Shown here: in pieces, positions 2,808-63,800 of the stretch
Numbering within the stretch: position 1 is the first letter of the stretch
How the letters are laid out: each line of letters begins with the position of its first letter
Program-made: the position numbers and the translations under genes
NCBI GenBank assembly: GCA_964499705.1
Contig: CAZCME010000013.1
Coordinates: 45,217-109,216 of the forward strand
Direction of reading: 5' to 3'
Source of the DNA: an uncultured bacterium
GTDB taxonomy: Bacteria > UBA8481
Length of the DNA: 64,000 nucleotides
The notes under the pieces: model-generated
Told to the model about the DNA's origin: nothing
The model's database searches: none
The model's input: only the letters and a program-made list of their open reading frames with translations

Positions 2808-3341
2808 TTAGCGCGGTACCATGATGAATGGCAGGTTGCGATAGCGTTCCTGCCAGTCTAGACCGTACCCCACGACGAACTTGTCCTCGATGACGAATCC
2901 CGTGTAGTCCACCTTGACGTCCGTCTTGCGGCGGCTCGGCTTGTCGAGAAGCGAGCAGATCCTGATGGATTCCGGATTTCGGACGGACAGGATCTGCTTC
3001 AGGTAAGACCATGTGAGGCCGGTATCGACCACGTCCTCGACCATGAGAAGATGCCTGTTCTCCAGCGGCACGACGATGTCCTTGATGATCCGGACAACGC
3101 CGGAGGATTTCGTGGAGATGCCATAGGACGAGACGGAAATGAAATCGATCTCGATGGGAAGATGAATTTCGCGGACGAGATCCGCGAGAAAAACCGAGGC
3201 GCCCCTCAAGATGCCGACGACGAGGAGATCCTTGCCGCGGTATTCCTGGGTGATCGTTTCTCCCAACCTCTTGACGGCACCCCTGATCTGATCCTCGGTG
3301 ATGAGGACTTCTCCGATGACGTCATCCGCCCAACTCACCAT
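2808..3341 (-). CDS. hpt: Hypoxanthine phosphoribosyltransferase
   Basis: ORF 2808..3500 trimmed to the internal Met at 3341 (MVSWADDVIGEVLITEDQI...). PRTase motif LLMVEDVVDTGLT and overall Hpt-like sequence; lies downstream of tilS as in many bacteria. Confidence 0.85.
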   Translation of the reverse strand: MVSWADDVIGEVLITEDQIRGAVKRLGETITQEYRGKDLLVVGILRGASVFLADLVREIHLPIEIDFISVSSYGISTKSSGVVRIIKDIVVPLENRHLLMVEDVVDTGLTWSYLKQILSVRNPESIRICSLLDKPSRRKTDVKVDYTGFVIEDKFVVGYGLDWQERYRNLPFIMVPR

Positions 3342-3423
3342 GTTTGTCGCCTCCAGGATTGAAGTATGGAGGATGAAGGGCGACGAAGACAATGCCTCTT
3401 TTCTTCCTTCCAACGTGACTTCA

Positions 3424-4866: not shown

Positions 4867-4943
4867 CCCTGATGATCATATCACGTTCTTTATCGCTCCA
4901 AGTCAACATGGCGCGAGCGCGGAGAATCCCTATAATCGACCCG

Positions 4944-6185
4944 ATGAGACATCCCCTCGGCAATCTTCTCCTGACCCTCTTCTGTTTCACGCCGATGGTT
5001 CCCGCGCACGCGGCCGACACGGTCACCATCTCGCTCTGGCATTCCTTTCGCGGGCAGGAAGCGATGGCCCTGGAGACCGTCGTCGCCACCTTCAACGAGC
5101 AGCATGCCGACAGGCTTGTGACACGGCAGATCGACGGGCATCGCTTCAACGACATCGTCGAGGAGGCATTCCAGAAGAACGGCGGTCCCGACATCGTGGT
5201 CTGGGCGCACGACAAGGTCGGGCCGTGGGCGAACCGCGGCTTCATCCTGCCCCTCGACGATCTCGTCGACACCGATACGCTCGATCTCTACATCCCGAAC
5301 TGCCTCGATGCCGTCCGAAGTTCCGGACGGCTGTACGGCCTGCCCCTCTCCTTTGAAACGCTCATCCTCTATTACAACCGCAACCTTGTCTCCCGTCCTC
5401 CCGCAACCACCGATGAACTGATCGAGATCGCCCGCGGGATTTCCAATCCGGCGGAAAAACGGTACGGCCTTGTTTACGAACGCGGCAATTTCTACTTCCA
5501 CGCGATCTGGCTGCACGGCTTCGGAGGCCGCGTCTTCGACGAAGCGGGCCGGTTCGACGTCCGATCGCCCGCGATGATCCGCTCCCTGGAATTCGCGCGC
5601 GACCTGTCCGCGACGCACCGGATCATCCCGGACACCGTCGACTGGAATGTCGAGATCGACCTCTTCAATGCCGGTCGCGCCGGCATGCTCATCAGCGGCC
5701 CCTGGGCCTGGGGCAGTCTCGACTGGGACAGCGTTCCAGTCGGCATCGCGGCAATGCCCGTCGTCTCCGCGACGAACCGGTTCGCCGCGCCGTTTCTCGG
5801 AGTCAAAGGCTTCTACATCAATGCCAGGTCCGCGCATCCCCGATCCAGCCTGGCCGCGATGACGCACCTCACGTCCGCCTTCAGCGGATGCCTCATGAAC
5901 GTGATGGCCGGCTATCTCCCCGCGAACCGGTTCGCGTATGAATTCAACGCGCTCGCGGAGCATCCCATCACGGCGAAGTGCGAGGAGCAGGTCGATTCGA
6001 CGGTGCTGATGCCGTCGAGCCGGGAGATGGGGTATGTGTGGCAGGTGATGATCCACGACAATGCCACGAACCACCCGGGATGTCTTGACAGGATTTTCCT
6101 GGAAGGAGTATCCGCGGAAGACGCGGCGCAGGAAGCATGGAATCGCTACCAGGCGCTGGCGGAAGCCGATCAGCGCGGAAAGTGA
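4944..6185 (+). CDS. ABC transporter substrate-binding protein (family 1 solute-binding, sugar type), orphan
   Basis: ORF 4872..6185; start placed at Met 4944 giving a signal peptide MRHPLGNLLLTLFCFTPMVPAHAAD; mature part resembles MalE-type binding proteins. No permease or ATPase genes adjacent. Confidence 0.65.
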   Translation: MRHPLGNLLLTLFCFTPMVPAHAADTVTISLWHSFRGQEAMALETVVATFNEQHADRLVTRQIDGHRFNDIVEEAFQKNGGPDIVVWAHDKVGPWANRGFILPLDDLVDTDTLDLYIPNCLDAVRSSGRLYGLPLSFETLILYYNRNLVSRPPATTDELIEIARGISNPAEKRYGLVYERGNFYFHAIWLHGFGGRVFDEAGRFDVRSPAMIRSLEFARDLSATHRIIPDTVDWNVEIDLFNAGRAGMLISGPWAWGSLDWDSVPVGIAAMPVVSATNRFAAPFLGVKGFYINARSAHPRSSLAAMTHLTSAFSGCLMNVMAGYLPANRFAYEFNALAEHPITAKCEEQVDSTVLMPSSREMGYVWQVMIHDNATNHPGCLDRIFLEGVSAEDAAQEAWNRYQALAEADQRGK

Positions 6186-6366
6186 GCGCATTCGGGCGGG
6201 CGGAAAAAGAAAAACCCCCGGAAGCGAGCGTCGCTCCGAGGGTTTCCTTGTCCCGGAATCCTTGACCCTTTTCAGGGGGCGTTCCGATTCCGAGCTTTAA
6301 ACCTCTGTTCGATTTCAGCGACCTGCTTTACCTTTTAGAAGGGCGGCCGCAACCTGTCCGAACGCG

Positions 6367-6585
6367 TCAGGCTCCCTGCTGGACCGCGAACGCCTCCAGG
6401 AGATCGGTCTTCCTGAAGCGGCGATGTCCCATGCGGGAGAAACGGTAGCACTTCAGCCTGTTCGATGAAGTCATGCGCCGGATCGTCGCCTGGGAGACAC
6501 CAAGAAATTTGGCGGCCTCGTCAATGCCGATGAATCCGTCGCGACCGTCGCTGATCCTGGGGGAAACCTCTTGAACCTGTTCCAT
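6367..6585 (-). CDS. Helix-turn-helix DNA-binding protein (excisionase/MerR-like HTH)
   Basis: 72-aa ORF with AAKFLGVSQATIRRMTSSNRLKCYRFSRMGHRRFRKTDL, an excisionase-type HTH pattern. Confidence 0.6.
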   Translation of the reverse strand: MEQVQEVSPRISDGRDGFIGIDEAAKFLGVSQATIRRMTSSNRLKCYRFSRMGHRRFRKTDLLEAFAVQQGA

Positions 6586-6753
6586 CTTCCTTCTCCTTTA
6601 GCGTATGATCTATATCGATCCCGATTTCGCCGGAAGCGAAGGCGGGACGGAGTATTTCGAGCCGATGCTCTTGAGCGCCGGAGGACTCTTTCGAGCCCTT
6701 TCCAACCGCTCCATCAAAGTAATCGGTTGGCTATAGCCAGACTTTAATATTTA

Positions 6754-6963
6754 TTGTTAGATTTTTTACCGGGAGGCTATTTTTACAGGCATATGGAACA
6801 ACATGGTGAGAATCGGATGAGCGAAGATGAGAAAACCATCCTCAAGTTCGACTCCGGAGCGGGAGGATTCGAGTACATGATCATCATCCTCGTCGTTCTC
6901 GCCGTTTTCATGCTCCTGGCGGGCGGTTACTTCCTCTGGACGTGGCAGCCGCCGGGCACCTGA
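6754..6963 (+). CDS. Hypothetical small membrane protein
   Basis: ORF 6754..6963 with a single hydrophobic helix (MIIILVVLAVFMLLAGGYFLW); weak support. Confidence 0.3.
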   Translation: MLDFLPGGYFYRHMEQHGENRMSEDEKTILKFDSGAGGFEYMIIILVVLAVFMLLAGGYFLWTWQPPGT

Positions 6964-8129: not shown

Positions 8130-8163
8130 AGGAGAAGTATGAAGTATGAAATACTTCGTACTT

Positions 8164-11031
8164 CTATTGCGCCGTCACAAGGTAATCGCGAAGTGCCTGG
8201 AGCTGCTTTTCCTCGTCCGGCGTTCCGCCGTCGAGGTTGGCGGGCATCCGGACTCCGGGATAGAAGGCGGCCGGGTTGCGGATCCATTTAACGATCCAGT
8301 CCGCGCGGAGCCTCTTTCCGGCGAGCGCCAGGTCGGGAGCCCATGTGTTGGATCCGCTGAGCGGCGTCTTCGCGCCGATGATGTGGCACGTAGTCGCGCA
8401 TCCCAGGTCGTCGACCAGTTGTCGGCCTGCCGCGACTTCCGCGGAAGAGGGATCGGGATGGCGAAGTTCGCTGAGGATCATGGTCGGCGTTTCCACGGCG
8501 GCGAAATAGTAGACGAGCGTGTTCAGCTCCGCGTCCCTGAATCCGAACGACGGCATGCGTACATTCAGCCACGGCCGCGGTCTCGCCATCGCCGGATCAC
8601 GGATGAAGTCGTAGAGCCACTCCGCCCGGATCTTCTGGCCGGTGCTGATGAGATTCGGAGGATTGACGTTCGTGAGCCACGGAGCATCGAAAACATCCGA
8701 TTCGACGCCTTCGTATTTCATCACGGCTTCGCGTATAACGGGCCGGATCGAGCCGCCGCGTCCTTCGATGATATGGCAACCCTGGCAGTTGTATTCGCGG
8801 ACGAGCCGCTGGCCCTGTTCCACGACGAGGTTCTTCGGGGTTCTCGGGAACATCTTCTCCGCCTTCACGCTGGGCTTCACGAATCCGACGATGGCCGTCA
8901 CGACCGCGTCGATCTCGGTGTCGGAGAGATCGAAGTTCGGCATCCGGAGCTTATCCAGCGGCGCAAGAACCCGCTCACGGTCGAAGATCCTCGGCTCCTT
9001 CAGCTTCTGCGTGAACCAGTCGTAGTTGTTATGGCCGATGTCATGAATGTAGCCGAAATCGAGCTTGGAAACCGGCTTGGAACCTTCCTCCGTCAATTCG
9101 GTGCCGATCGGCATCGCGGTGTCGAATCCGGGGATCTCGTGGCAGCCGAAGCAGCCATACGTGCCTATCAGTTTCCGGCCGGTGAACTCGAGCTTCTGCG
9201 CCTGAGAACTCTTTTCGATCGTCTCTTTCGCCTGGGCGTTCGTCATGTTCTTCGCGAGAAACTCCAGCATGATTCCATTCAGGATCTTCTCATCGAGGGG
9301 AGGAATCTCCGTGTTGAACTCCTCGTTCCTGTTCTGCATCAGGTACGCCGTGACATCAGCCGCTTCCTGATCCGTCAGTCTCAGATCGGGCATCCTCGTA
9401 TTGGGCGAGAACGCATGAGGATTCCTGATCCAGTTGTAGACCCAGTCGGCGGAGGTCTTCGTCGCCAGTCCCGTCAGCTCCGGCCCCTGCATTCTCCGTA
9501 TCATGTCCGACGTCGTGTTCGTCCTTATGAAGGCCGATCGATCCTTGTCAAAGTGCGTCTTGTCTTCCTGCAGGTGGCATCCGTAGCAGCCAGTCGTCGC
9601 GAGGATCTTTTCGCCGCGGGCCGGATCGCCGGGCATCGCCATCGAAGCCATCGCATGCGTATCGCTGAACTGGAAGAGGTAGGCGACCATCGCGTGGATT
9701 TCCTGGCGGGATCGAGCCTTCTGTTCGTCGGAGCTGTTGTTCGACTGATCGAAGAACCGCGGCATCCACGTGTTATGGCGGAAGCTCTTCGGGTTCAGGA
9801 TCCACCGGTACGTCCAATCCTTGGACGTCTTCGCGGCGATCTTCCTCAGCGACGGGCCCGGCTTCGACCGGCCCAGGTAGCGGGAGATGTTATGGCAGCC
9901 GTAGCATCCGGCCTTCTCGATGACCTGGAGGCCCAGGTTCAGTTTCTCCGCGCCGCGCAGTTCCGTGGCGTGCGAATGACAGTTCAGGCATCCCGCTTCC
10001 GTGTACTTCGTCGGAAGCATCGGAGTCTCCCAATAGTGATAGAGATACCAGCCGTATTTCGCCTTCCATTCCTCTTCCTGCTCATGTGACGACGGCCTGT
10101 GAATCGACATCAGGAAGCTCGTGCCGCGTCCGCGGCCCAGGTGGCAGCTCGCGCAGCCGAACTCCTCGACCGGATGCGGGGAGGCGCTCGAAAGAAACAG
10201 ATCCAGCTTCGGATGCGTCTTGAAGGGCTGGGCATCTTCCGCGAATTCGGGCCTCATGAGGCCCTGGTGGCAGGTCTGGCACCGGTCGACGCTCGGGACG
10301 CGGAGAAAGTTCAGGTTGTCGGTGACGTCAGGAACGACGACTTGTTCGATCTTGTAGGACGGGTTGAGGAAATCGAGAAGCGGCATGTCGCGAATGGCGT
10401 TGCCGATCTTCGCGAGGAGGCTCATGTTCTCCGGATCCATGTTCGCCAGTTTCCTCTGGAGAACGGCGGCCTTCCTGGCCAGCGCGGCGGCGGAATCGTT
10501 CAGAGCGCGGATGGCGTCCTGCTTCTTCATCATCTCGGCGGAGGCGCTCTCCAGGTCCGTCGCGGCCTTCTCGTTCTTCAGGCGCAATGCTTCCATCTCG
10601 CCGAAGAGCTTGTCCATCTCCGCCTTCTGCTTCTGCCCCTCATGCCCGTGGCCGCGTTGGTTCTCGTAGCGATATTTCGCGGCTTCGTACTCCGATTTGC
10701 GGAACTGGTAATCCTGGTTCGCCTTGTCGCTGACGGCCTTCAATTCCGTGATGGTTTTCGCAAACTCCTGGCTCACCATCTTCCGGATTTCCAGGTCCGC
10801 CTCCACCTGAGCGACCGCGTCGACCGCGTTCTGCAGGTCGGCGCTGGAGAGGACATCGCGCGTCTTGGAGATATCGAGCTTCCTGAATTCGCGCTGAAAG
10901 TGTTTCCATTCGCGGTCGTAGTCGTCCACGAACATCCAGATGAACGTGGCGAACATGATGATGCTCGATATCGCGAAGACCCGGTTCACCCGGGACATCA
11001 CGTAATATCTCTGCTCGCCCTTCTCCGCCAC
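8164..11031 (-). CDS. Multihaem c-type cytochrome (about 8 haem-binding sites), bc-complex associated
   Basis: 955-aa ORF with CxxCH motifs CQTCH, CASCH, CLNCH, CYGCH (twice), CFGCH, CQGCH and one CxxxCH (CATTCH); N-terminal TM segment followed by a coiled-coil-like region. Confidence 0.8.
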   Translation of the reverse strand: MAEKGEQRYYVMSRVNRVFAISSIIMFATFIWMFVDDYDREWKHFQREFRKLDISKTRDVLSSADLQNAVDAVAQVEADLEIRKMVSQEFAKTITELKAVSDKANQDYQFRKSEYEAAKYRYENQRGHGHEGQKQKAEMDKLFGEMEALRLKNEKAATDLESASAEMMKKQDAIRALNDSAAALARKAAVLQRKLANMDPENMSLLAKIGNAIRDMPLLDFLNPSYKIEQVVVPDVTDNLNFLRVPSVDRCQTCHQGLMRPEFAEDAQPFKTHPKLDLFLSSASPHPVEEFGCASCHLGRGRGTSFLMSIHRPSSHEQEEEWKAKYGWYLYHYWETPMLPTKYTEAGCLNCHSHATELRGAEKLNLGLQVIEKAGCYGCHNISRYLGRSKPGPSLRKIAAKTSKDWTYRWILNPKSFRHNTWMPRFFDQSNNSSDEQKARSRQEIHAMVAYLFQFSDTHAMASMAMPGDPARGEKILATTGCYGCHLQEDKTHFDKDRSAFIRTNTTSDMIRRMQGPELTGLATKTSADWVYNWIRNPHAFSPNTRMPDLRLTDQEAADVTAYLMQNRNEEFNTEIPPLDEKILNGIMLEFLAKNMTNAQAKETIEKSSQAQKLEFTGRKLIGTYGCFGCHEIPGFDTAMPIGTELTEEGSKPVSKLDFGYIHDIGHNNYDWFTQKLKEPRIFDRERVLAPLDKLRMPNFDLSDTEIDAVVTAIVGFVKPSVKAEKMFPRTPKNLVVEQGQRLVREYNCQGCHIIEGRGGSIRPVIREAVMKYEGVESDVFDAPWLTNVNPPNLISTGQKIRAEWLYDFIRDPAMARPRPWLNVRMPSFGFRDAELNTLVYYFAAVETPTMILSELRHPDPSSAEVAAGRQLVDDLGCATTCHIIGAKTPLSGSNTWAPDLALAGKRLRADWIVKWIRNPAAFYPGVRMPANLDGGTPDEEKQLQALRDYLVTAQ

Positions 11032-11046
11032 GTTCCGTCTTCCTCT

Positions 11047-12162
11047 CTAAATGTTGAAGAAATACTCGGGGATCGCCACGAGGTATTTCAGGTTGAATGT
11101 CCAGCGCAGGTACATCTTGATCGGAATGAGGATCGCCCACAGGAGCATCACGATGAAGGTGCTGTAGCGGATCGGCCCCAGGCCGGCGTACATCTTCTTC
11201 AGCCAGGTCTTCGCCAGGAGAGGCGGCATCACCGCGAAATATCCTCCGACGAATAGAATGCCCCACATCTCCCGCAGGAGAATGTTCTTCGGCAATCCGA
11301 TGTTCAGGCCCTTCATGTAGATGTATTCGGACAGGTTGACGTTCGTCAGCGCTTCGAGCTTATGCAGGTCCCACGCCTCGAACGGGCCGAAGAAGTTCCA
11401 GTTCGGGCCGCGGAGAAATGTCCCGATGAAGATGAGGTAGACCCAGAGGATGAGCCAGCCGAACATGAAGAGCGAGATCGCAAGGCGCCGCTGCTTGTAG
11501 CTGTAATACCCGACGCCCTTTTCATTGTTGTCGATGAAGGGAATCGCGGCGATGCCTCCGAGGACAAGCGTCGGGAGGATGACGCCGGCGATCCAGGGAT
11601 CGAAATAGACGAGAAGCTCCTGGAGACCGAGGAAGTACCACGGGGCCTTGGCCGGATTGGGCGAGAGCGTCAAGTTCGCGGGTTCCTCCACGGGTGCCGG
11701 GAGATAGATCGACCAGACGATGAGAAACGCGGTGCAGAGAATAAGGGAGATGAACTCGATGTAGACGAGGTCCGGCCAGACAAGCACTTTATCCTTCGGA
11801 TCATGGATTTCGGTCGGCTTCATCCCGCTCGCGAGCTTCGCGTCGTTCTCCACGGCCTGCTTCATCGCGAGCCAGAGGAAGAAGTATGTCAGGAATGCGA
11901 GCCCCGCGATCGGCACGTTATCGGGCTTTGTCAGAATGAGGCTGCAGTTCTCGTCGGCCAGTCCAATGAGAAAGAAGAGCGTCATCAGGGCGAAGACCGT
12001 GACCGCGCCCTTGTTGGTCCAGAGGAACGGGATCTTCAGCCGTGCGTTCCACTTCTCGAACCAGTCGTTCGGCGGAAAGACGAAGAAGAGACCGCCCGCC
12101 AGGACTGTGAATGTAATGCGCGGGTCCGAGAGGAAGTTGACGAATTCCTTGAGGTAATGCAT
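11047..12162 (-). CDS. Cytochrome b C-terminal domain protein (subunit IV-like, split cytochrome b)
   Basis: 371-aa polytopic membrane ORF containing PWYFLGLQELL, which resembles the conserved PEWY region of cytochrome b C-terminal domains; start overlaps the stop of the cytochrome b N-terminal gene by 1 nt. Confidence 0.75.
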   Translation of the reverse strand: MHYLKEFVNFLSDPRITFTVLAGGLFFVFPPNDWFEKWNARLKIPFLWTNKGAVTVFALMTLFFLIGLADENCSLILTKPDNVPIAGLAFLTYFFLWLAMKQAVENDAKLASGMKPTEIHDPKDKVLVWPDLVYIEFISLILCTAFLIVWSIYLPAPVEEPANLTLSPNPAKAPWYFLGLQELLVYFDPWIAGVILPTLVLGGIAAIPFIDNNEKGVGYYSYKQRRLAISLFMFGWLILWVYLIFIGTFLRGPNWNFFGPFEAWDLHKLEALTNVNLSEYIYMKGLNIGLPKNILLREMWGILFVGGYFAVMPPLLAKTWLKKMYAGLGPIRYSTFIVMLLWAILIPIKMYLRWTFNLKYLVAIPEYFFNI

Positions 12163-53257: not shown

Positions 53258-54427
53258 ATGTGTATTTTGGGATTTGGATTAATGTACACAGTCGAAGTGC
53301 GCGACGCGAAGGCGGGCATGACGCTCTCGCGGCCGGTCTTCACCCGGAACGGAAACCTGCTCCTCGATGCCGGCACCCGCCTCTCCGATCATACCCTCGA
53401 CCTGCTCGATCTCTGGGGCATCTTCGACATCCAGGTCGATTCGATCGACTCGCCTTCCGGTCACGCGCCCGCTCCCCGGCAGAAGAAAAAGTTCGATCCT
53501 GTGAAGCGCGAGGCCGAGAAGAAGCGAGTGGAGGATGTGGGCGGCTGGGTGCGCGATGAGATCGAGGGTCTCATGAAGCAGATGAATTCCGGGGGAAGGG
53601 ACATCGACATGGAGCGGCTCAAGGGAGTCGCGGAGTCGATCGTGGAGGAATCCATGAAGGACAACGAGCTGATGGTCTCCCTGACGACGCTCATGGACTT
53701 CGACAGCTATCTCTTCTCGCACGCCGTCCACGTCTCGATTCTCTCCGTCGTGATCGGCATCGCGATGGGCCTCACGCAGAAGGAAATCCAATCGCTGGCC
53801 ATCGGAGGAGCGCTCATCGATCTCGGAATGCTTAAGGTGGACCGGAAAATATGGGATAAGGACGGCGTCCTGTCGGAAGCCGAGTTCAACTTCGTGAAAC
53901 AGCATCCGCTCCTGGGATTGAAGGACGCCGAGCCGCACTGCCGGGGCGATGTGGCTTCTCTCCGGATCATCGCGGAGCATCACGAGCGGCTGGACGGATC
54001 GGGCTATCCCCGGAAGCTGCGGGACAAGGCGATTCATCCTCTGGCGAAGATCGTCGCCGTCTGCGACATCTATGACGCGATGCAGCAGCCCCGCGCCTAC
54101 AGGAAGAAGTGGCTCCCCTACCAGGTCATGGGCCATCTGCTCGTCTCGTCCACGGAGACCCTGGACGCGCAGGTTGTGAAGACTTTTCTCCGCACGATGT
54201 CCGCGTATCCCATCGGATCGTTCGTGAAGATGGATACCGGCCAGGTCGGCGTCGTCGTCTCCTCCAATCCCGCCAGCCCGATCCGACCTGTCGTGAAGCT
54301 CTTCCTGCTGGCTTCGGGAGAGACCATGGAGAAGCCGGAATTCGCGGATCTTTCCGCCGATAAGAGATTCATCATCGGACCGATCGATCCCCGCCAGATC
54401 CACGTCAAACCCTTCGATGTTTTCTAA
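53258..54427 (+). CDS. HD-GYP domain phosphodiesterase (c-di-GMP-type)
   Basis: HD motif (HAVHVS) and EHHERLDGSGYPRKL GYP signature. Alternative start at Met 53282 (MYTVEVRD...) would place the inverted heptamer segment in the 5' leader. Confidence 0.8.
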   Translation: MCILGFGLMYTVEVRDAKAGMTLSRPVFTRNGNLLLDAGTRLSDHTLDLLDLWGIFDIQVDSIDSPSGHAPAPRQKKKFDPVKREAEKKRVEDVGGWVRDEIEGLMKQMNSGGRDIDMERLKGVAESIVEESMKDNELMVSLTTLMDFDSYLFSHAVHVSILSVVIGIAMGLTQKEIQSLAIGGALIDLGMLKVDRKIWDKDGVLSEAEFNFVKQHPLLGLKDAEPHCRGDVASLRIIAEHHERLDGSGYPRKLRDKAIHPLAKIVAVCDIYDAMQQPRAYRKKWLPYQVMGHLLVSSTETLDAQVVKTFLRTMSAYPIGSFVKMDTGQVGVVVSSNPASPIRPVVKLFLLASGETMEKPEFADLSADKRFIIGPIDPRQIHVKPFDVF

Positions 54428-54439
54428 AGCGACGACGGG

Positions 54440-55966
54440 ATGAATTCTCATTCCGGGATCGCGCGGTGCCGGACCGCGGTCCTGTCCGGGATAGACGCTC
54501 TTCCGGTGGATGTGGAAGTGGATATCGGGCGCGGATTGCCGGGCCTCAAGTGCGTCGGGTTGCCGGGCGCCAGCGTGAAGGAATCGGAGGAGCGGGTCAA
54601 ATCGGCGATCCGGAAATCGGGCTTCGACTGGACGAGGAAGCGGATCACGGTCAATCTCGCGCCCGCCGACCTGCGAAAGGAAGGCTCCGGTCTCGACCTC
54701 CCCATCGCCCTCGGAATTCTCGCCGCTTCCGGAGCGCTGCCTCACGAAGCGCTGGAAGGATGGATGGTCCTCGGGGAATTATCGCTGGACGGCCAGCTCC
54801 GCCCGGTCCGCGGCGCCTTGAATTTCGCGATGCTGGCCCGCCGCTCGGGCGTCAGGCGATTGCTGGTTCCGCAGGAAAATGTCGCGGAAGCCTCGCTCTG
54901 CCATGACGTGGATGTCCACTCCGCGCGGAATCTTGCTGAAGCGGCTGCGCTGTTGCCGGCCCCCGGTGCTGTTCCACCTCGTGCGCCCGCGTCGGCGATT
55001 CCGGAAAGCGACCTGGACTTCGCGGATGTCCGCGGACTTTCGACACCGCGCCGGGCCGCGCTTGTCGCCGCGGCGGGCGGCCACAATATTCTCATGATCG
55101 GGCCGCCCGGTTCCGGGAAGACGATGATCGCGCGACGCTTTCCGACGATCCTGCCGGCGCTGGAATTCGACGACGCCCTGGAGATGCTCCGGATCCATTC
55201 CGCGGTCGGCCTGACCCTGAACGGCACGCTCCCGTCGATTCCTCCATTCCGCGCCCCCCACCATACGACCTCCGCGGTCGGCATGATCGGCGGCGGCCAT
55301 CCGATGCGGCCCGGCGAAGTGTCGCTGGCGCACCGTGGCATTCTCTTCCTGGACGAGCTGCCGGAATTCCGCCGCGATCTCCTGGAGTCGCTGCGTCAGC
55401 CGATCGAGGACGGGCACGTCACGGTGACGCGTGCGTCGGGATCGGCGAATTTCCCCGCGAAGTTCATGCTCGTCGCCGCCATGAATCCCTGCCCCTGCGG
55501 CCAGCTCGGCTCGGACATCCCGTGCGAATGCGCGCCGTCGCAAGTCGGCAAGTACATGCGCCGCATCTCCGGTCCGCTCCTGGACCGCATCGATATCCAC
55601 CTGGAGGTTCCGCGCCGGCCGTACCGCGAGACATCCGCGAACGCGCCCGGCGAAACATCCGCTTCGCTGCGGCAGCGGGTGACCGAGGCGAGAACGCGCC
55701 AGAATCTGAGATATGCGAAGGCTCGATATCGCACCAACGCGCAGGTTTCCGCGAAGGCGTTTCGGCAGTCCTTCGAAGCGGAGGAGGCCGCGCACGAACT
55801 GCTGCGGGAATCGGTCGACGGGCTCGGATTGTCCGCGCGCGCCGCGGAGAAGGTGGAGCGCCTGGCGCGGACCGTCGCGGACCTGGCGGGGCGGGACCTG
55901 GTCACGGAAGACGATGTCGCCGAAGCGGTCGGCTACAGGACGCTCGACAGGCGTTGCCGCGCATGA
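54440..55966 (+). CDS. comM: YifB/ComM-family Mg-chelatase-like AAA+ ATPase
   Basis: N-terminal Lon-protease-like domain, Walker A MIGPPGSGKTMIA, Walker B ILFLDELPEF, and Cys cluster NPCPCGQLGSDIPCEC typical of the family. Confidence 0.85.
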   Translation: MNSHSGIARCRTAVLSGIDALPVDVEVDIGRGLPGLKCVGLPGASVKESEERVKSAIRKSGFDWTRKRITVNLAPADLRKEGSGLDLPIALGILAASGALPHEALEGWMVLGELSLDGQLRPVRGALNFAMLARRSGVRRLLVPQENVAEASLCHDVDVHSARNLAEAAALLPAPGAVPPRAPASAIPESDLDFADVRGLSTPRRAALVAAAGGHNILMIGPPGSGKTMIARRFPTILPALEFDDALEMLRIHSAVGLTLNGTLPSIPPFRAPHHTTSAVGMIGGGHPMRPGEVSLAHRGILFLDELPEFRRDLLESLRQPIEDGHVTVTRASGSANFPAKFMLVAAMNPCPCGQLGSDIPCECAPSQVGKYMRRISGPLLDRIDIHLEVPRRPYRETSANAPGETSASLRQRVTEARTRQNLRYAKARYRTNAQVSAKAFRQSFEAEEAAHELLRESVDGLGLSARAAEKVERLARTVADLAGRDLVTEDDVAEAVGYRTLDRRCRA

Positions 55967-57933
55967 AGAAGGAGGATATTCGAAACCAGCTGCGAGGATT
56001 GCAGGCTCTGCAGGGGCTCGCGCCGTCGTTCCTCGACGAGATCGCGGAACTGGGGGTGGAAAGAACATACGCGCGCGATTCGATCGTCATATCCGAAGGG
56101 CAGGTCGTGGAACATTTCTTCGTGATACTCGGAGGACGGCTGCTGGCTCACTATGGCGACAAGGTTGTTTCGCACATGGAGCGAGGCGACACGTTCGGCC
56201 AGCTGAGCCTGATGGCGGAAGTGCCGTCGCTCGTCACCGTGAAGGTGCGGCACGACGCGCGGCTCCTGCACGTTCCGCGCAATCTCTTCCGGAAAGCGCT
56301 GGCATCGAGCCCGGAGTTCGCGGCGCAGATCTTCAAGGGTTCCGCCGCGCGCCTCGCGACGATCAACCAGGAGACGAGGACGCGCCAGCCCGTCATCGTC
56401 GCCGTGCATTCGGCGCCCGCGGGAGTCGGCAAGACGAAGTTCGCCATCAACCTGGCGTGCGCCATGGCCGCGGAAAATGCCGGCCGCGTGCTTCTTGTCG
56501 ATGTCGCCACGGAGAAAAAGCGCTTCATCGACATCTTCGGTTTCGGAGGATCTCTGCCTCTTGTCGATCTGCGGGACATCGAGACATCGAGCCGGGACGC
56601 GGTGCGGGAAAAAACGCGAAAGCACGATGCCGGGTTCGAGATACTCCGCCTGGCCCATCGCGGGAGCTCCGCGAGCGCGGACCAGACGCGCGAGGACGAG
56701 GCGGTCGCGCCGCTGCTTTCATCGCTGTCCCGGACATTCCATTACATCGTGACCGATCTGCCTCCGGTCATGGACGCGACCGTCTGGAAATTCCTGACGC
56801 ACGCCGATACCGCGATCATCCTGACGTCGGCCGAGCCGGTCCATCTCGCGCAAACAGCCAATCTCCTCGGAAAGCTGCCCGGCAAGGCCAGGGTCCTTGT
56901 GACGCGGGCCACGACCGAGCTCGAAGCCAAACGAGAAACGATCGACACCGCGCTCGGACAGCGCGTGGACGAATTCCTCGAGGAGCTCCCGGAAGGCGAT
57001 GAAATCGCTTTCATCTCCCGCCCGGGATCCCGCTACGCCTCGGCGGTACGCCGCCTCGCTCGCGGCATCCTCGGCCGGCTCGTGGGCCTGGCGCTCTCCG
57101 GAGGCGCCGCGAGAGGGATGGCTCACATCGGCGTCCTGAAGGTGCTGGAAGAGGAAGGCATCCGGCCCGATATCATCGCCGGAACTTCGATGGGGGCCCT
57201 GATCGGCGGGATGTGGGCGTCCGGGAGCAACGCGGCCGTATTGGAAAGGATCGCGCGGAGGATCCGACGGAGCGAGTTCTTCAGCATCTTCGACCTGGCC
57301 CTGCCGCCTTCGTCAGGGCTCCTTCGCGGCACCAAGGTCGATCACTTCATCCGCGGCGTCTTCGGCCAGAAGCGCTTCTGCGACCTTCTGATTCCGCTCC
57401 GGGTCATCGCCACCGACATCGACACGGGAGATCACGTCGTCTTCGATCACGGTTCCGTGGCCGACGCCGTCCGGTCTTCCGTGGCCATCCCCGGAATCCT
57501 GAAGCCGAACATCGTCGACGGCAGGCGCCTGACGGACGGCGCCGTCATCGCTCCCGTTCCCGTCGATACGCTGCGGGAGGCGGGCGTGTCCCGGATCATC
57601 GCCGTCAACGCGATTCCCACCGCCGAATGCTTCCGCGATTACAGCCGTTCGGCGATCCAGCCCGCGGCGGGACGGAGCGATTTTCTCGCGCGCCTCTTCC
57701 ATTTCAGCACCCGCGACGTGCCAAGCCTTCTCGATATCATCGTCCGCTCGAACCAGTTCATGGAGGCGGCGATCGCGGAACATTCCTGCCAGGGCGCCTC
57801 GGTCATCATCCGCCCGTGGCTCCCGGAACTGCACTGGATGGATTTCGACTCCGCGCCGCGCTTCATCGAGTCCGGCGTCAAGGCCGCCAGGGAGGCGATG
57901 CCGGAGATCAGGGAGATGATGAATGGGGGATAA
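55963..57933 (+). CDS. Three-domain fusion: cNMP-binding domain / ParA-MinD-like P-loop domain / patatin-like phospholipase
   Basis: ATG 55963 overlaps the comM stop (ATGA); the upstream part of track ORF 55522..57933 is out of frame. cNMP-binding (ISEGQVVEHFFVILGGRL...GDTFGQLSLM); P-loop AVHSAPAGVGKTKFAINLA with Walker B IVTDLPP; patatin motifs SGGAARG, GTSMG, TDGAV. Confidence 0.75.
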   Translation: MKKEDIRNQLRGLQALQGLAPSFLDEIAELGVERTYARDSIVISEGQVVEHFFVILGGRLLAHYGDKVVSHMERGDTFGQLSLMAEVPSLVTVKVRHDARLLHVPRNLFRKALASSPEFAAQIFKGSAARLATINQETRTRQPVIVAVHSAPAGVGKTKFAINLACAMAAENAGRVLLVDVATEKKRFIDIFGFGGSLPLVDLRDIETSSRDAVREKTRKHDAGFEILRLAHRGSSASADQTREDEAVAPLLSSLSRTFHYIVTDLPPVMDATVWKFLTHADTAIILTSAEPVHLAQTANLLGKLPGKARVLVTRATTELEAKRETIDTALGQRVDEFLEELPEGDEIAFISRPGSRYASAVRRLARGILGRLVGLALSGGAARGMAHIGVLKVLEEEGIRPDIIAGTSMGALIGGMWASGSNAAVLERIARRIRRSEFFSIFDLALPPSSGLLRGTKVDHFIRGVFGQKRFCDLLIPLRVIATDIDTGDHVVFDHGSVADAVRSSVAIPGILKPNIVDGRRLTDGAVIAPVPVDTLREAGVSRIIAVNAIPTAECFRDYSRSAIQPAAGRSDFLARLFHFSTRDVPSLLDIIVRSNQFMEAAIAEHSCQGASVIIRPWLPELHWMDFDSAPRFIESGVKAAREAMPEIREMMNGG

Positions 57934-58018: not shown

Positions 58019-59506
58019 ATGATCTCCAACTGGAGCCGATTCACGGCGTGGCCGGCGCGCGAAATGAAGCGCCTCCAGGACCGGCTCCTCGTGGATTTCC
58101 TTCGCGAAGACCTCGTCCCGTTTTCCTCCTACTACGCGAAGCTTTTCGACGAGCAGGATATCGACGTGGATGAGATCAACGCGGTGTCCGACCTCGCGGG
58201 TCTTCCCTTCACGACGAAGTCGGATCTCATCGCGGCATTGGACGAAGATCCGCTCGCCTTCGTCCTCCGGCCGACCGCGGACCTGATCCGGGCTCACTGG
58301 CCCCTTGCGAGAAAGTTACCGCTCCTGGCGCGGAAGCTCTTCAAGGGCGAAGCCGATGTGAAGCGCGTCCTGGAGAAGGAATACCTGCCGATCTTCATGA
58401 CGGCAACGACGGGACGCGCGGCGAAACCCGTGTCGTTTCTTTACACGCGAGCGGACATGTATCGACTTCGCACGGCGGGGCGTCGCACCGCTGATGTCAT
58501 TGGCCTGACATCCGCGGATCGCTGCATCAACCTCTTCCCTTATGCTCCGCATCTCGCCTTCTGGCAGGTCGCCTTCGCGGGTTTCGAATCGGGCATCTTC
58601 ATGCTCTCCACGGGCGGCGGGAAGACCATCGGCACGGCGGGAAATATCCGCGCGATGGAAAAAGTGAAGCCCACGTGCCTCCTCGGCGTCCCGAGCTACG
58701 TGTATCACATCCTCCGATGCGCGGAGAAGGAAGGATTGAAGCTGTCGTCGATCAACACGATCGTGCTGGGCGCCGAAAAGGTGCCGCCCGGCCTGAAGGA
58801 ACGTCTCTCCGACCTGGTCGTTCGCCTGGGAGGAAAGCCGCCGCGCGTCGTGGGGACATATGGATTCACCGAAGCCAAGATGGCGTGGTCGGAATGCGAT
58901 GGCGGCACCCAGGGCAGGGAAAGTTCCGGTTACCATCTCTATCCCGACATGGAAATCATCGAGATCGTCGAACCGGAAACAGGCCGCGTCGTCGGCGAAG
59001 GCGAAAGCGGCGAGATCGTCTACACGTCGCTCGATGGGCGCGGCACGGCCGTGCTGCGGTATCGAACGGGAGACTACTGCGAGGGCGGAATCACGTATGG
59101 CCCGTGTCCTCATTGCGGCAAGACCCTTCCCCGTCTCTCCTCGAACATCACGCGTCTTTCGAACGTGAAGGATGTCAGCCTCACCAAGGTCAAGGGCACG
59201 CTCGTCGATCTGAATCACATCGCCTCGCTCCTGTCGGACGCAAGCGAGATCGAGGAGTGGCAGCTTGAGATATCGAAACTGAATGACGATCCGTCCGAGG
59301 TGGACGTCATGACGCTCTCCTTCACGCCCGTCGCGGGAGCGCGGATCGAGCCGAAGGAAATCTCCCGCAGGATCTTTGACGCCACGGAAGTGGCCTTGAA
59401 CAAGGTCGAAGTCCTGGCGCTTCCGGAGATGGTCGCGAAGCTGGGGCTCGAAACCGAATTGAAGGAGAAACGAATCATCGACCGCAGAGCGGAAGCGAAG
59501 AAGTAG
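58019..59506 (+). CDS. Phenylacetate-CoA ligase-like adenylate-forming enzyme (PaaK / F390 synthetase family)
   Basis: 495-aa ORF; N-terminal LAGLPFTTKSDL motif, TTGRAAKPV (AMP-binding P-loop-like), and C-terminal domain typical of PaaK-like ligases. Confidence 0.7.
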   Translation: MISNWSRFTAWPAREMKRLQDRLLVDFLREDLVPFSSYYAKLFDEQDIDVDEINAVSDLAGLPFTTKSDLIAALDEDPLAFVLRPTADLIRAHWPLARKLPLLARKLFKGEADVKRVLEKEYLPIFMTATTGRAAKPVSFLYTRADMYRLRTAGRRTADVIGLTSADRCINLFPYAPHLAFWQVAFAGFESGIFMLSTGGGKTIGTAGNIRAMEKVKPTCLLGVPSYVYHILRCAEKEGLKLSSINTIVLGAEKVPPGLKERLSDLVVRLGGKPPRVVGTYGFTEAKMAWSECDGGTQGRESSGYHLYPDMEIIEIVEPETGRVVGEGESGEIVYTSLDGRGTAVLRYRTGDYCEGGITYGPCPHCGKTLPRLSSNITRLSNVKDVSLTKVKGTLVDLNHIASLLSDASEIEEWQLEISKLNDDPSEVDVMTLSFTPVAGARIEPKEISRRIFDATEVALNKVEVLALPEMVAKLGLETELKEKRIIDRRAEAKK

Positions 59507-59523
59507 GAACTACGCGGCTTCCT

Positions 59524-60057
59524 TCAAATTCCGCCCTCTTCGACCCGATCGAGCTTCTGAACGGTTCCATCCGGAGCCGAAATCTCGAAAGGAAACCAGA
59601 GATCGCGCGAGTCGTCGTCCATGCGACACGAGAGCTCCTCGATTCCGCCCCCGACATCCGTGACGCGAATTTTCACATCGGCATCGAGATCCTTCGACGG
59701 ACCGGGAGCCCAGTATCGGACGGCGACGCGCCAGGAACCTGTTTCGCGGGCCGGAACGAAGCGGAGTTCCTCGTCGCCGGAGAGTCCGGAGACACGCTCG
59801 GTCGCGGCGGTTTTTTTCGCGAGCACGCGCACGTTGGAATCGCCGGATGATGCGGCCATCTGCCAGAGCTCGACATCGAGGTCGGCATCATTATCCCAGG
59901 AGAGCCGGATCAGTACTCCCTGCTGTTGCGGCTCGCCACAACCCAGGATGGTCGCCGCGACAAAAAGCGCGGTAGCCAGAACCTTGACGAAGCCGGCGTG
60001 CCCGCGTACGATTTCAGAGGAAATGAATTTGTCCGGCCGCATCATCCCGGCCATCAT
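59524..60057 (-). CDS. Hypothetical lipoprotein
   Basis: 177-aa ORF; lipobox-like LFVAATILGCGEP; rest hydrophilic, no motif. Confidence 0.5.
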   Translation of the reverse strand: MMAGMMRPDKFISSEIVRGHAGFVKVLATALFVAATILGCGEPQQQGVLIRLSWDNDADLDVELWQMAASSGDSNVRVLAKKTAATERVSGLSGDEELRFVPARETGSWRVAVRYWAPGPSKDLDADVKIRVTDVGGGIEELSCRMDDDSRDLWFPFEISAPDGTVQKLDRVEEGGI

Positions 60058-60092
60058 ATTCCAAAACCGGTTATCTGATATTCGAATTCACC

Positions 60093-60165
60093 GGGCGCGT
60101 AACTCAGCGGCTAGAGTGCCACCTTCACACGGTGGAAGTCGCAGGTTCAATCCCTGCCGCGCCCA
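60093..60165 (+). tRNA. tRNA-Val (anticodon CAC)
   Basis: 73-nt cloverleaf folded by hand: acceptor GGGCGCG/CGCGCCC, D-stem ACTC/GAGT, anticodon stem CCACC/GGTGG with loop TTCACAC (anticodon CAC), T-stem GCAGG/CCTGC with loop TTCAATC, discriminator A; CCA not encoded. Confidence 0.85.
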
Positions 60166-60266
60166 GGATCAGCGGCTGCCATCCATCAGCGGGAGGAAAT
60201 TCGTGTGAATCGGAAGCGCGAAGATTTTTCAGAATATCGGCCCATCGCTCGCGACTTCATGGTGCC

Positions 60267-60791
60267 ATGACGACCACCCCCATCAACAATCTCGCTGCCG
60301 TCCCCTTCCTGGCGCTCCTGGACGACAACGAATGCCGGGCTCTGGGAGCGCGCCTGCAATCCAAATCCTATCAAGCCGGCGAGGAAATATTCGCGCAGGG
60401 GCAGCCGGGGGATTCGTTCTACATCGTGAAAAGCGGTCGCGTGAAGATCTTCATCGAGAGCGGGGACGGAGAAGAGATCGTCTTGACGGAGAGCAAGGCG
60501 GGCGACGCGTTCGGCGAAATCTCGCTCTTCGACGGAGGTCCGCGCACCGCCACCGCCGTCGCCGCATCGCAGGCCGAATTGCTCTGGCTCGATCGAGGAC
60601 GCCTCCTCGATTTTCTCTCCGACTTCCCGCATGCCGCGCTCGACCTCATGGCGTTCATGGGTCGCAGGCTTCGCGAGACGGACGAATTGCTCCGCGTCAT
60701 CATCGCCCGCAAGCCCGAGAGCAAGGCGGCCGAAGAAAACTCCACCTTCGATCAGATCTCCAGGAGCATCAGGAAGTTCCTGTCGGCCTGA
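60267..60791 (+). CDS. Stand-alone cyclic-nucleotide-binding domain protein (Crp-like effector domain, no obvious HTH)
   Basis: ORF 60132..60791 trimmed to Met 60267 (MTTTPINNLAAVPFLALL...); motifs GDSFYIVKSGRVKIF and AGDAFGEISLFDGGPRTATAVA; C-terminus too short for a Crp-type DNA-binding domain. Confidence 0.7.
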   Translation: MTTTPINNLAAVPFLALLDDNECRALGARLQSKSYQAGEEIFAQGQPGDSFYIVKSGRVKIFIESGDGEEIVLTESKAGDAFGEISLFDGGPRTATAVAASQAELLWLDRGRLLDFLSDFPHAALDLMAFMGRRLRETDELLRVIIARKPESKAAEENSTFDQISRSIRKFLSA

Positions 60792-60838
60792 TGCGCGCCA
60801 TGGACGAAGCCGCGGCCGTGCGATAACCTCCGTCGCGG

Positions 60839-63800
60839 ATGGCCTCCAAGGGAACCAAGGGTAAGGAAGCGAAAAAGAGCTCCGCCGCGTCCAAGCGCCT
60901 GCGTGCTCTTCTGTGGGGTTTCCTCATCGGCATCCTCGTCTGCGCTTTCACGCTGGCCGTCGGTACGACGAATTTCGCGAAGAAGACGGAGCTGATCACG
61001 CTCGATCTCCGCTATCGCCAGAGGCCTCCCGTACGTTTTCATCCCGATGTCGGATATATCGACTTCGACGACTCTTCCATCGCGCTCTTCGGCCGCTGGG
61101 TCTGGCCGCGACACCGGATGGTGGCGCTCGTTCGAACGCTCGATCGATACGACGCGCGCGCGGCCGGATACGACGTCTTCTTCACGGAAAAAAACGACGT
61201 TGTCCTGGCCACGGACCGGCTCGCGAGAGAATCCTCCGACACGGGCACCGCGCCTCCTCCCGTGGAGAAGGTCACGGCGGCCTTCCGGGACTACGACATG
61301 GAATTCGAGGAGGCGATCCGCGACGCGGGCAACATGTATCTGGGCCAGTTCATGCCTCAGCCCGACGCGGAAATGGCCGCGGGAAGCCCGACGGAGAGAC
61401 GGGCCAAGATCCAGAACTACATCGACTCCCAGTTCATGCCCACGCGCACGCCGGATCAACTGGCGGCGCTCGTGGTGGCCGAGCAATTCGCCGTCGACGC
61501 CGATTCCGCGATGGACGAGCATCTCTACAAGGCCATCGGCATCACGACGGTGCTGCCCGAACTCTCTCTCGCCGCGGCGGGCGTGGGCTACGCCCAGATC
61601 ATCGAGGATCTCGATCCCGCCGTCCGACTGTATCCCCTCTTCATGTATTTCAACCGAAAGGCCTACCCTTCCATCGCCGTCGTCATGCTCTGCCGGCTCC
61701 TCGATGTGCCGGTGCAGAACATCCGCATCGTGCCGGGCGAGTTCATCGAGTTCCCGAACGCGCTGACCGAGCCTCCGGACCAGTCGGTGCTCGCCGATCC
61801 GGAACACCCCGTCCGGAAGGAAGCGCCCCGCGGGACGATTCGCATCCCCGTGGATCAGCATGGCCAGATGCTCGTCAACTGGGCGGGCTCCTTCATGGAA
61901 CGGGGCCTCCATATATCTTTTCGCAGCATATCAGCCTTCCATGCGCTCGCGCGCTCCAAGGAGATCGCCGGGCGCTACGCCCCCGTGCCCGACTCCTATG
62001 CGCCACTCCGTGACGAAATCTGGACGGCCATCAGCGAGGACAAGCTGGTGACGGACGAGGAAGGCAGGAGACTAGCCGAGGAGATCGCTCTGGCTCACGT
62101 CGTGGAGCCGATGCTGGACGCGGGCGTTTCGCCGGTGGACGCATGGACGACGGTGACATCGGGCCCGGAGCCCATCTGCCCGCCCGAGCCGAACTTGAAG
62201 GACGTCATCACCGCGCTCGACGTCGCTCATCGCGCCCGGGACGGGCAGGACACGACCAGCCCCCTCGGCGAAACCTGGAATCGGGAGATCAGCCGCAACA
62301 TCGCCTTCTTCGCGAAACGCGATCGCCTCCAGGAAGTATCGCCTCTTTATTTTCCACGGCCCTCCTCCGCCATGTGGGACGGAGAGATGAAGGAATTCTC
62401 GCCGGTCGACCTGGAAAACAAGATGCTCATGATCGGACTGACCGGGATCGGCACGATCGATCTGAACCCGATGCCATTCGAGCGCGCCTGTCCGATGGTG
62501 GCGCTGCACACCAACGCCCTGAACACGATTCTCACGAAGCAGTTCCTCCAGTTCCCCGAAAAATCCGACCGTTACATCGCCGTGCTCATCCTGGGGCTGG
62601 GCGCGTCCCTTCTCTGCGCTTTCCTCTCGCCCTCGCAGGCCTTCCTGCTCTGCCTCGCCATGGGAGGCGGCTACACATGGCAGGTCTGGTCCTACTGGCG
62701 CAACGACGGCCGCTGGGTCCCGCTCGTGGAGCCGCTCCTTGCGCTTTCGCTCACCTACGTCATCCACGTCGTCATCGAATTCATCCGCGCGCTCCGCGCC
62801 AAGCAGCAGATCCGCGGCCTCTTCTCGACGATGGTCTCCCCGAACGTCCTGAAGCTCATGGAGCAGAATCCGGACAAGTTCTCCCTGACCGGCGAACGAA
62901 AGCCCGGCACGATGTTCTTCTCCGGGATCGAGGGATTCGGCAAGGTGACGCAGGGTGTCGCTCCGGAGGATCTCTCCGCGATCCTCGGCATGTATCTCAC
63001 GCCGACGAGCGAGATCATCATGGATTACGACGGTTACATCGACAAGTACGAGGGCCATATCATCATGGCCGATTTCGGAGTTCCGCTGGACGATCCGGGC
63101 CACCCGTGGAAGTGCTGCTACTCCGCGATCGAGCAGCAGCAGGATATCGAGGCCTTCCGCGTCTTCGTCGCGGCGCGCTACGGCGAGGACGTCACGGTCG
63201 CCATGGGAATCAACAGCGGTTACGTCTCCGCGGGGAACATGGGCTCGGAGAAAAAAATGCAGTACACTGTGATGGGCGACGCCGTGAACGTGTCGGCCCG
63301 GTTCCGTCCCGCGAACATCATCTACAACACGGGAGTCATCACCGGCGAAGCCACGGAACCGCTCATTCGCGACACGGTCGAGCTCCGCATGCTCGACAAG
63401 CTCCTCCTGAAAGGCAAGACCAAGCCCACGACCATCTATGAAGTGATGGGGTGGAAGGAAGAGAGCTATCTGAAGACGAAGGCGGGAAAACCCGTGCCGC
63501 CGTCGCTCTTTGTCCGCTGGCGAACCTGCCCGCCGGAGAAGGTCTTCGGATATATCCTCTTCTGGCGCAGGCGTGAAAAGGACCACGGAGTCGCTCTCTG
63601 CGGCGAGATCGCGGCGTTCTTCGAATCGGTGGTCCCGATCGCGGAAGAGATCATGATCCACTCCGCGACGCTCTCCATCAGCTCCCTGGATGCCGCCATC
63701 AACCGCGTCGAGGACGCCGTCAGGAGCATCGCTCCGGAATCCTGGTCCACGCCGGATGTTCCGCCGCGACAGGAAGGCGATCCGACATGGATGCAGAAGC

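Follow-up and report, generated by a model that had tools for sequence, protein, structure and literature searches.

A stand-alone cyclic-nucleotide-binding protein with no DNA-binding domain

The window, by which we mean the whole stretch of 64,000 nucleotides (nt) analysed here from contig CAZCME010000013.1 of an uncultured bacterium, carries on its forward strand a gene for a 174-residue protein with a cyclic-nucleotide-binding (CNB) domain. This gene lies between a tRNA-Val(CAC) gene and the first of two genes for large receptors that join CHASE2 to a class III cyclase domain, here called cyclase 1 (Cy1) and cyclase 2 (Cy2). Cy1 runs past the end of the window, and Cy2 lies on L004, a longer contig of the same organism (Table 1). 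The preliminary description of this DNA had presented the product as a stand-alone cNMP-binding protein without a DNA-binding domain, encoded directly upstream of the CHASE2 cyclase. Both points were borne out, the gap from the stop codon to the ATG of Cy1 at 60839 being 47 nt.

Table 1. The CNB gene, its parts and its neighbours (window positions, unless L004 is named)
Feature	Coordinates	Strand	Basis or remark
Stand-alone cyclic-nucleotide-binding protein, 174 residues	60267..60791, stop included	+	Open reading frame; ATG 60267, TGA 60791
CNB beta-barrel, residues 33-118	60363..60620	+	Pfam match, AlphaFold2; best Foldseek matches are CRP/GlxR sensor domains
Phosphate-binding cassette FGEISLFDGGPRTATAVA, residues 82-99	60510..60563	+	Sequence; BLASTP alignment to E. 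coli CRP
Long C-helix, residues 121-147, CRP-like motif MGRRLRETDE	60627..60707	+	AlphaFold2, CRP alignment
Putative C-terminal amphipathic basic helix, residues 160-173, TFDQISRSIRKFLS	60744..60785	+	Alignment A1, P0003 model, hydrophobic moment
tRNA-Val(CAC), upstream boundary of the insertion	60093..60165	+	Adjoins the cyclase pair also in relatives without the CNB gene
47-nt spacer, CNB gene to Cy1	60792..60838	+	Holds an 8-codon mini-ORF; no terminator-like site
Cy1, CHASE2 + class III cyclase (Guanylate_cyc), 1181 residues	60839..64000, to ~64384 beyond the window	+	L004 5781-9326
Cy2, CHASE2 + class III cyclase, 1168 residues	L004 9323-12829		4-nt overlap with Cy1
Lipoprotein-like gene, 177 residues	59524..60057	-	Signal peptide + lipobox (…ATILGC), no Pfam; conserved neighbour of tRNA-Val and the cyclase pair

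The only Pfam domain found in the protein was PF00027 (cNMP_binding), over residues 33-118, at 92.3 bits against a cutoff of 27.5 (E 1.9e-26). No helix-turn-helix (HTH) family was detected with Pfam at E<=0.01, types PF13545 and PF00325 included, and the NCBIfam profiles likewise revealed no cryptic HTH. The NCBIfam CRP equivalog scored 52 bits against a cutoff of 266, and its match was confined to profile positions 21-134 of 214, which make up the sensor part. Only 27 residues follow the long C-helix and only 47 nt separate the stop codon from the next gene, and a DNA-binding domain is therefore excluded. An HTH hidden by an error of frame or stop was also ruled out, as the spacer is too short, the other frames hold no HTH, and an orthologue with 88% identity ends at the same place. 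A start at GTG 60132 was rejected because it overlaps the tRNA-Val gene, which leaves ATG 60267 as the sensible start.

Public databases hold the identical protein (P0001), from a Candidatus Hydrogenedentota groundwater metagenome-assembled genome (MAG), under the NCBI name 'Crp/Fnr family transcriptional regulator'. That name would require a true Crp/Fnr transcription factor with a cryptic or mis-called DNA-binding domain. The protein does have the arrangement of that family in its first part, an N-terminal CNB-fold effector domain followed by a predicted long C-helix, both CRP-like. However, the lack of any Pfam HTH, the lack of room for one, the distance of the CRP equivalog score from its cutoff, structural alignments that span the sensor and C-helix only, and a tail that aligns with the DUF1003 family and with no HTH all speak against it. 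We thus give this reading next to no probability, in agreement with the preliminary description, and without a winged HTH a role as a transcription factor by the CRP mechanism is impossible. The same label, 'CRP/FNR family transcriptional regulator', is applied by NCBI or JGI to many HTH-less CNB-DUF1003 proteins as well as to this one, and is a systematic annotation error for the family.

Likely origin from CNB-DUF1003 membrane proteins

A search of 5.8 billion proteins returned, after the identical protein, a 176-residue orthologue (P0002, 88% identity) and then about 100 proteins of 270-295 residues at 42-59% identity, with no protein between 59% and 88%. All of these ~100 relatives combine PF00027 with PF06210 (DUF1003) and cover 88-97% of the query (best match 59%, E 1e-48), and true Crp-type proteins rank below them, at about 40% identity. 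A search of representative clusters yielded 67,889 matches, the top ranks being occupied by multi-CNB giants with summed scores, and held no closer stand-alone relative. The nearest relatives of the protein are thus CNB-DUF1003 membrane proteins (~270-295 residues), which occur in Acidobacteriota, Planctomycetota, Gemmatimonadota and others and are functionally uncharacterised; in the literature searched, DUF1003 is named in passing in two papers and in no title or abstract.

In an alignment of 11 sequences (A1), the 174-residue protein can be aligned with CNB-DUF1003 proteins along its whole length, to residue ~171. Its tail, ...ENSTFDQISRSIRKF-LSA, falls on the relatives' ...ERLTFGQRIADRVAxFGGSW and ends where their first transmembrane (TM) helix, TM1, starts, with STFDQISRSIRKF matching LTFGQRIADRVAxF. 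In the model of the nearest full-length relative (P0003), the C-helix spans residues 116-141, a juxtamembrane helix 155-167 and TM1 170-189, and TM2 continues into a long helix at 201-272. The CNB barrel, the phosphate-binding cassette (PBC), the C-helix motif, the linker and the juxtamembrane helix of the family are all shared, the RNxN linker motif being replaced by ARKPE. In contrast, DUF1003 itself, that is, the two TM helices, the segment containing the QNRQ motif and the long C-terminal helix, is absent from the open reading frame (ORF) and from all frames of the window. Searches by tblastn and with a purpose-built hidden Markov model on all ORFs of at least 60 residues detected no DUF1003 sequence in the 64-kb window or on the longer contigs.

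Alignment and models together indicate that the 174-residue protein corresponds to the cytosolic half of a CNB-DUF1003 protein that was severed after the juxtamembrane helix and ahead of TM1, and that its terminal helix (residues 160-173) is what remains of the juxtamembrane helix of that family. It is a CNB-DUF1003 derivative by descent, not a member by architecture. We surveyed the best 80 GTDB loci among species representatives, in which ~73 of the 88 ORFs with a CNB domain also encode DUF1003, the others being contig-end fragments, a possible frameshift, or members of other CNB families. No comparable truncation was found in these loci, and the protein is the sole truncated form found besides its own orthologue. 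One surveyed locus, L067 from a Tepidisphaeraceae MAG, has a complete homodimer-type CHASE2 adenylate cyclase (3094-5925) 75 nt upstream of a full-length CNB-DUF1003 gene (6001-6849). It is the sole such pairing in ~73 loci and could be explained by chance, and we do not use it as evidence.

This parentage offers targets other than a cyclase. The protein might act on the membrane itself, or on a DUF1003-type or full-length CNB-DUF1003 paralogue encoded elsewhere in the genome, with which it could pair in mixed dimers by way of the C-helix they share, to dominant-negative or modulatory effect. The elements it keeps, namely C-helix, linker and juxtamembrane helix, are exactly those that touch or come near the membrane domain in the parental proteins, and its base composition, equal to that of its neighbours, fits an origin from a resident paralogue. 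Yet the window and the longer contigs are devoid of DUF1003 in the searches above, and no Hydrogenedentota appear among the best 80 GTDB CNB-DUF1003 loci. A target of this kind seems unlikely on balance.

A CRP-like fold and a probable cAMP pocket

An AlphaFold2 model of the protein was built on 81 homologues and reached a mean confidence score (pLDDT) of 84. It shows an N-terminal helix, an eight-stranded barrel (pLDDT >90) with a PBC helix at residues 84-89, helix B at 110-119 and the long helix C at 121-147, followed by a disordered stretch (148-159) and a last helix (160-173) at low confidence (pLDDT ~45-53). Foldseek placed the sensor domains of CRP/FNR proteins first among PDB structures, with M. 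tuberculosis CRP (Rv3676; PDB 3h3u, 3d0s and 3i54) and C. glutamicum GlxR (PDB 4byy) as best matches, over ~138 residues at a root-mean-square deviation of ~2 Å (E 1e-15 to 1e-13). These alignments end at the terminus of the C-helix. The tail had been described beforehand as rich in Ala and Glu, which holds loosely for residues 148-159, a short acidic disordered linker. It does not hold for residues 160-173, which are not of low complexity and are predicted to form a basic amphipathic helix. The net charge of this helix is +2, and its hydrophobic moment, 0.79 over 14 residues, exceeds that of any other part of the protein.

The ligand contacts of CRP are conserved. In CRP, G71-E72, R82-S83 and T127 contact the ribose, the phosphate and adenine N6 of cAMP, and BLASTP alignment to E. 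coli CRP pairs them with G83-E84, R93-T94 and T138, respectively. The cassette pattern (Gly-Glu ... Arg-Ser/Thr-Ala) is intact, and so is the RRLxxT motif of the C-helix, which in CRP lies in the dimer interface and makes the adenine N6 contact. G83 and R93 are invariant in alignment A2, and G83, R93 and T138 are invariant in family alignment A1, where the 174-residue protein has them by construction of the 11-sequence alignment. The ligand pocket hence looks intact and CRP-like, and we infer that the ligand is cAMP. That the protein is a functional cAMP-binding protein is, in our judgement, highly probable. It probably dimerises through its C-helix in the fashion of CRP, and its terminal amphipathic helix may associate with the membrane. 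Amphipathic membrane-targeting helices of the MinD/FtsA type, which have no homology to this protein, provide an analogy, being likewise short, basic and C-terminal, here on a probable dimer.

An intact ligand site with no output domain would also suit a passive cAMP buffer or sink, a cyclic-nucleotide buffer having been considered in the preliminary description. Such a protein would act with no specific partner and shape the amplitude or kinetics of the signal. A position at the head of a cyclase operon would tie the amount of such a protein to the source of cAMP. There is also a precedent for cAMP-binding proteins with neither enzymatic nor DNA-binding output: the small and abundant mycobacterial universal stress protein (USP) Rv1636/MSMEG_3811 is proposed to sequester cAMP (PMC11107214). 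That protein has a USP fold, not a CNB fold, and is not encoded with a cyclase. Moreover, a buffer requires high abundance, and a pure buffer would have no use for the C-helix or the terminal amphipathic helix, both of which have persisted with conservative substitutions. Buffering alone is accordingly an unlikely role, although we rate it very slightly above a target in the membrane or a DUF1003 paralogue.

A lineage-specific insertion under purifying selection

On L001, the contig of the orthologue P0002, tRNA-Val is likewise followed by a CNB gene, for 176 residues, and then by the beginning of the same CHASE2 cyclase gene. Homology between this contig and the window begins exactly at the tRNA (L001 336-408), and the regions upstream of it are unrelated. 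To place the CNB gene in a wider frame, we compared eight contexts of Cy1 orthologues with 38-52% identity in Cy1 (L087, L088, L089, L090, L091, L092, L093 and the contig of P0274). None of the eight has a CNB gene upstream of Cy1, as tblastn on L087-L089 also showed. The local order of the window is kept in L087 and L088, where a minus-strand lipoprotein-like gene (165-183 residues) is followed by tRNA-Val(CAC), Cy1 and Cy2, and the gap between tRNA and Cy1 is 308 nt and 153 nt, respectively, as compared with 673 nt in the window. The Cy1 proteins of the window, L087, L088 and L093 are roughly equidistant (47-53%), and the outgroups also have no CNB gene; one gain in the lineage of the window and L001 is therefore far more parsimonious than several losses.

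These comparisons of gene order indicate that the CNB gene is a recent, lineage-specific insertion and not a conserved partner of the cyclase. The tRNA-Val(CAC) gene marks a rearrangement point, with the CNB gene inserted just downstream of it. No mobile-element signature was found at the insertion, where there are only short repeats at chance level and no integrase. The GC content of the CNB gene (0.62) and that of its third codon positions (GC3, 0.81) match the values of its neighbours, so the gene either has been there long enough to ameliorate or derives from a copy of a resident one.

Between the window and L001, the synonymous divergence (dS) of the CNB gene is 0.41 and its dN/dS 0.19. 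This ratio is lower over residues 1-145 (0.13) and higher over the last 29 codons (0.30), and for the N-terminus of the cyclase it is 0.07. The CNB gene is thus under purifying selection. Within the tail, the two linkers have drifted apart (KAAEEN versus RNSDWL), and the changes in the terminal helix are all conservative (T>S, I>V, R>K and F>Y). Between the tRNA and the start codon, the non-coding DNA of the two sequences has visibly diverged.

The gene might still be thought a non-functional remnant, a fragment left by a rearrangement beside the tRNA and not yet eroded. It is after all a truncation of a longer family, it is missing from all other cyclase-pair loci examined, and it sits next to a tRNA gene, where rearrangements occur, as the difference between L001 and the window upstream of the tRNA illustrates. 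However, an open frame with the same truncation point and the same length class has persisted in two lineages at a dS of ~0.4, together with the tRNA-Val and cyclase neighbours, while the flanking non-coding DNA diverged, and the dN/dS values are low overall and lower still in the domain. A decaying fragment is therefore unlikely, and a dead one, already disfavoured by these data, has in our estimate only a very small probability.

The preliminary description had also linked the CNB gene to the adjacent cyclase. The same strand, the 47-nt gap, the lack of a terminator-like site and the recurrence of the arrangement in L001 speak for this link. No terminator-like site was found within 59400-61400, and between the tRNA and the cyclase Rfam detected no structured RNA other than the tRNA. 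From the arrangement of the genes, it is plausible that the CNB gene is co-transcribed with the cyclase genes, and it probably is. The mini-ORF in the spacer (60800..60826, MDEAAAVR*) keeps its start, stop and length in L001 (MDEVPLVR*), the three changes being non-synonymous, and may be a regulatory upstream ORF or a product of chance.

A putative heterodimeric CHASE2 adenylate cyclase

Cy1 and Cy2 are 27% identical to each other. When both were aligned to P. aeruginosa CyaB (3r5g) and to Cya2 (2w01), their catalytic residues proved complementary. In Cy1, the two metal-binding Asp residues are replaced by Gly and His (FFSGIEGF and YEGHIIM), and the transition-state motif (GDAVNVSARF) retains its Asn and Arg. 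Cy2 is the reverse: both metal-binding Asp residues are present (FSSDVSGF and YEGDAIK), and the positions of Asn and Arg are occupied by Thr and Glu (GEQVTLAEEL). Both proteins carry the Lys (DKYEG) and the Thr (QYTVMG) of the specificity pair. A Lys-Asp/Thr pair marks adenylate cyclases, as opposed to the Glu-based pair of guanylate cyclases (PMC6005667).

A second large gene directly follows Cy1 in all eight contexts. It encodes CHASE2 and a cyclase domain in L088, L089, L090 and L092, is split in L091, and has no recorded Pfam hit in L087, L093 and the P0274 contig. Orthologous pairs from five further lineages of Hydrogenedentota and Nitrospirae, at 38-52% identity, show the complementary pattern as well. 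For the window and three of these lineages, the pairs were aligned and each of the four residues was verified; the remaining two pairs were examined by motif search, which confirmed all positions except the first Asp of the first gene, where the pattern was unmatched. In L091 (Nitrospirae), the second cyclase is divided into a CHASE2 gene (8180-9751, 523 residues) and a cyclase gene (9779-11689, 636 residues). The related assembly L092 has it intact (8134-11613, 1159 residues), and the split may be a frameshift or an assembly error.

Judged by these residues, Cy1 and Cy2 seem to form an adenylate cyclase that works only as a heterodimer and has a different extracellular CHASE2 sensor in each subunit. 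Their expected product is cAMP, which would fit the CRP-like pocket of the CNB protein. The division of labour is that of the C1/C2 halves of mammalian cyclases. Bacterial class III cyclases are described as homodimers, and D300A and R376A mutants of Rv1625c complement each other (PMC4821796); Cy1/Cy2 would be the natural equivalent of that engineered pair. The literature searched contained no description of heterodimeric CHASE2 cyclases, and the cyclase pair seems a more unusual and less expected object than the CNB protein.

A CNB protein encoded beside a class III-type cyclase also recalls the Pycsar defence system. In Pycsar, an effector CNB is fused to a TIR or TM killing domain and encoded next to a small pyrimidine cyclase, PycC. 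Here the 174-residue protein has no TIR or TM killing domain, its neighbours are CHASE2 receptors of ~1180 residues with the Lys and Thr residues of adenylate cyclases, and the cyclase pair stands in a chromosomal synteny conserved across phyla, not in a defence island. The PADLOC matches to PycTIR and PycC were to generic CNB or cyclase cores (37 and 57 bits, respectively), and we rejected Pycsar or any other defence system.

Possible modes of action

Taken together, the data suggest a CRP-like, probably dimeric cAMP receptor with no output domain of its own that signals by contact, most plausibly in feedback on the cyclase. We give this composite reading an even chance. According to it, the cytosolic half of a CNB-DUF1003 protein, cut before TM1, would have landed between tRNA-Val and Cy1 in one Hydrogenedentota lineage, and the insertion would then have been retained by selection. 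The gene would be transcribed together with the cyclase genes, and its product would dimerise through the C-helix and bind cAMP made by the Cy1/Cy2 heterodimer. With neither a DNA-binding nor a membrane output domain present, the signal would be passed by contact with a protein or with the membrane. The most economical target would be the membrane-bound Cy1/Cy2 heterodimer, under cAMP-dependent feedback, and the terminal amphipathic helix, formerly at the membrane surface before TM1, could hold the protein at the membrane beside the cyclase.

The logic proposed here, in which a separate ligand-binding polypeptide modulates a catalytic partner, resembles that of the regulatory subunits of protein kinase A, and the CNB domain matches that of the RI subunit (E 1e-24). 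The comparison is a functional analogy only, since the present protein has one CNB domain and not two, lacks an inhibitor or pseudosubstrate segment as well as a docking domain, and has as its proposed partner a cyclase and not a kinase.

Several observations weigh against the contact-signalling reading. The cyclase pair stands without the CNB gene in every other lineage examined (eight contexts), which makes the protein an accessory at most, and CNB-DUF1003 genes show no general linkage to cyclases (1 of ~73 loci, about chance level in cyclase-rich genomes). The only sigma-70-like promoter consensus lies upstream of the tRNA, and the operon structure is deduced from spacing alone. As for the ligand, a Thr after the PBC Arg is also seen in the cGMP-selective domains of protein kinase G. 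Furthermore, the tail helix is modelled at the low confidence given above, the estimate of selection comes from one sequence pair, and its figure for the tail from 29 codons. The weakest of the inferred points is the cyclase as direct target, which we hold to be possible but doubtful. Less probable again is a more elaborate version of the same idea, in which the protein would be a dedicated third subunit of the heterodimeric CHASE2 adenylate cyclase, a cAMP-gated dimer tethered by a MinD-like helix salvaged from the lost TM domain and exerting product feedback; we rank it a little below the buffer and the other membrane targets.

Neighbouring genes

The lipoprotein-like gene on the other side of the tRNA is 37% and 29% identical in its product to those of L087 and L088, respectively, and marks the ancestral synteny of the locus. 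Its product may partner the CHASE2 sensors in the periplasm.

Farther upstream, on the plus strand, a gene at 55963-57933 encodes a 656-residue fusion of a cNMP_binding domain, a ParA/MinD-like P-loop ATPase (AAA_31) and a patatin phospholipase, and overlaps the preceding ComM/ChlI-like gene by 4 nt. A protein of the HD_5 (HD-GYP-like) family is encoded at 53258-54427, and the neighbourhood is rich in genes for nucleotide second messengers. The patatin fusion had been put forward in the preliminary description as another possible target of the CNB protein, which would then serve as its sensor. The two genes lie within 5 kb of each other and both belong to cyclic-nucleotide signalling. However, the fusion has a CNB domain of its own and belongs to a different gene string, and two genes, one for an AMP-binding enzyme and one on the opposite strand, lie between them together with the tRNA. 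In addition, the CNB gene is kept in L001, where the DNA upstream of the tRNA is unrelated. Regulation of the fusion is for these reasons unlikely, and we consider it about as improbable as a dead gene fragment.

Significance

Stand-alone CNB proteins are commonplace, as the number of representative clusters that match the domain attests, and their bare observation is no surprise. Bacterial genomes abound in single-domain cNMP-binding proteins, which usually bear the wrong label of Crp/Fnr regulator, and for almost none of them is the mode of action known; we found no directly relevant work on stand-alone bacterial CNB proteins in the literature searched. What is new here is a documented route to such a protein, in which a membrane sensor appears to have been truncated at the membrane boundary, captured in front of a cyclase operon and retained by selection, together with the hypothesis on the role of the tail helix. 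This traceable history makes the 174-residue protein a handle on how cAMP sensors with no output domain signal. Were it indeed a third subunit of the cyclase, it would stand as the bacterial equivalent of a regulatory subunit, here for a cyclase, that arose recently by the capture of a gene fragment. The cyclases themselves may be the more valuable lead, as conserved two-gene CHASE2 adenylate cyclases with complementary active sites would represent a natural version of the mammalian C1/C2 design.

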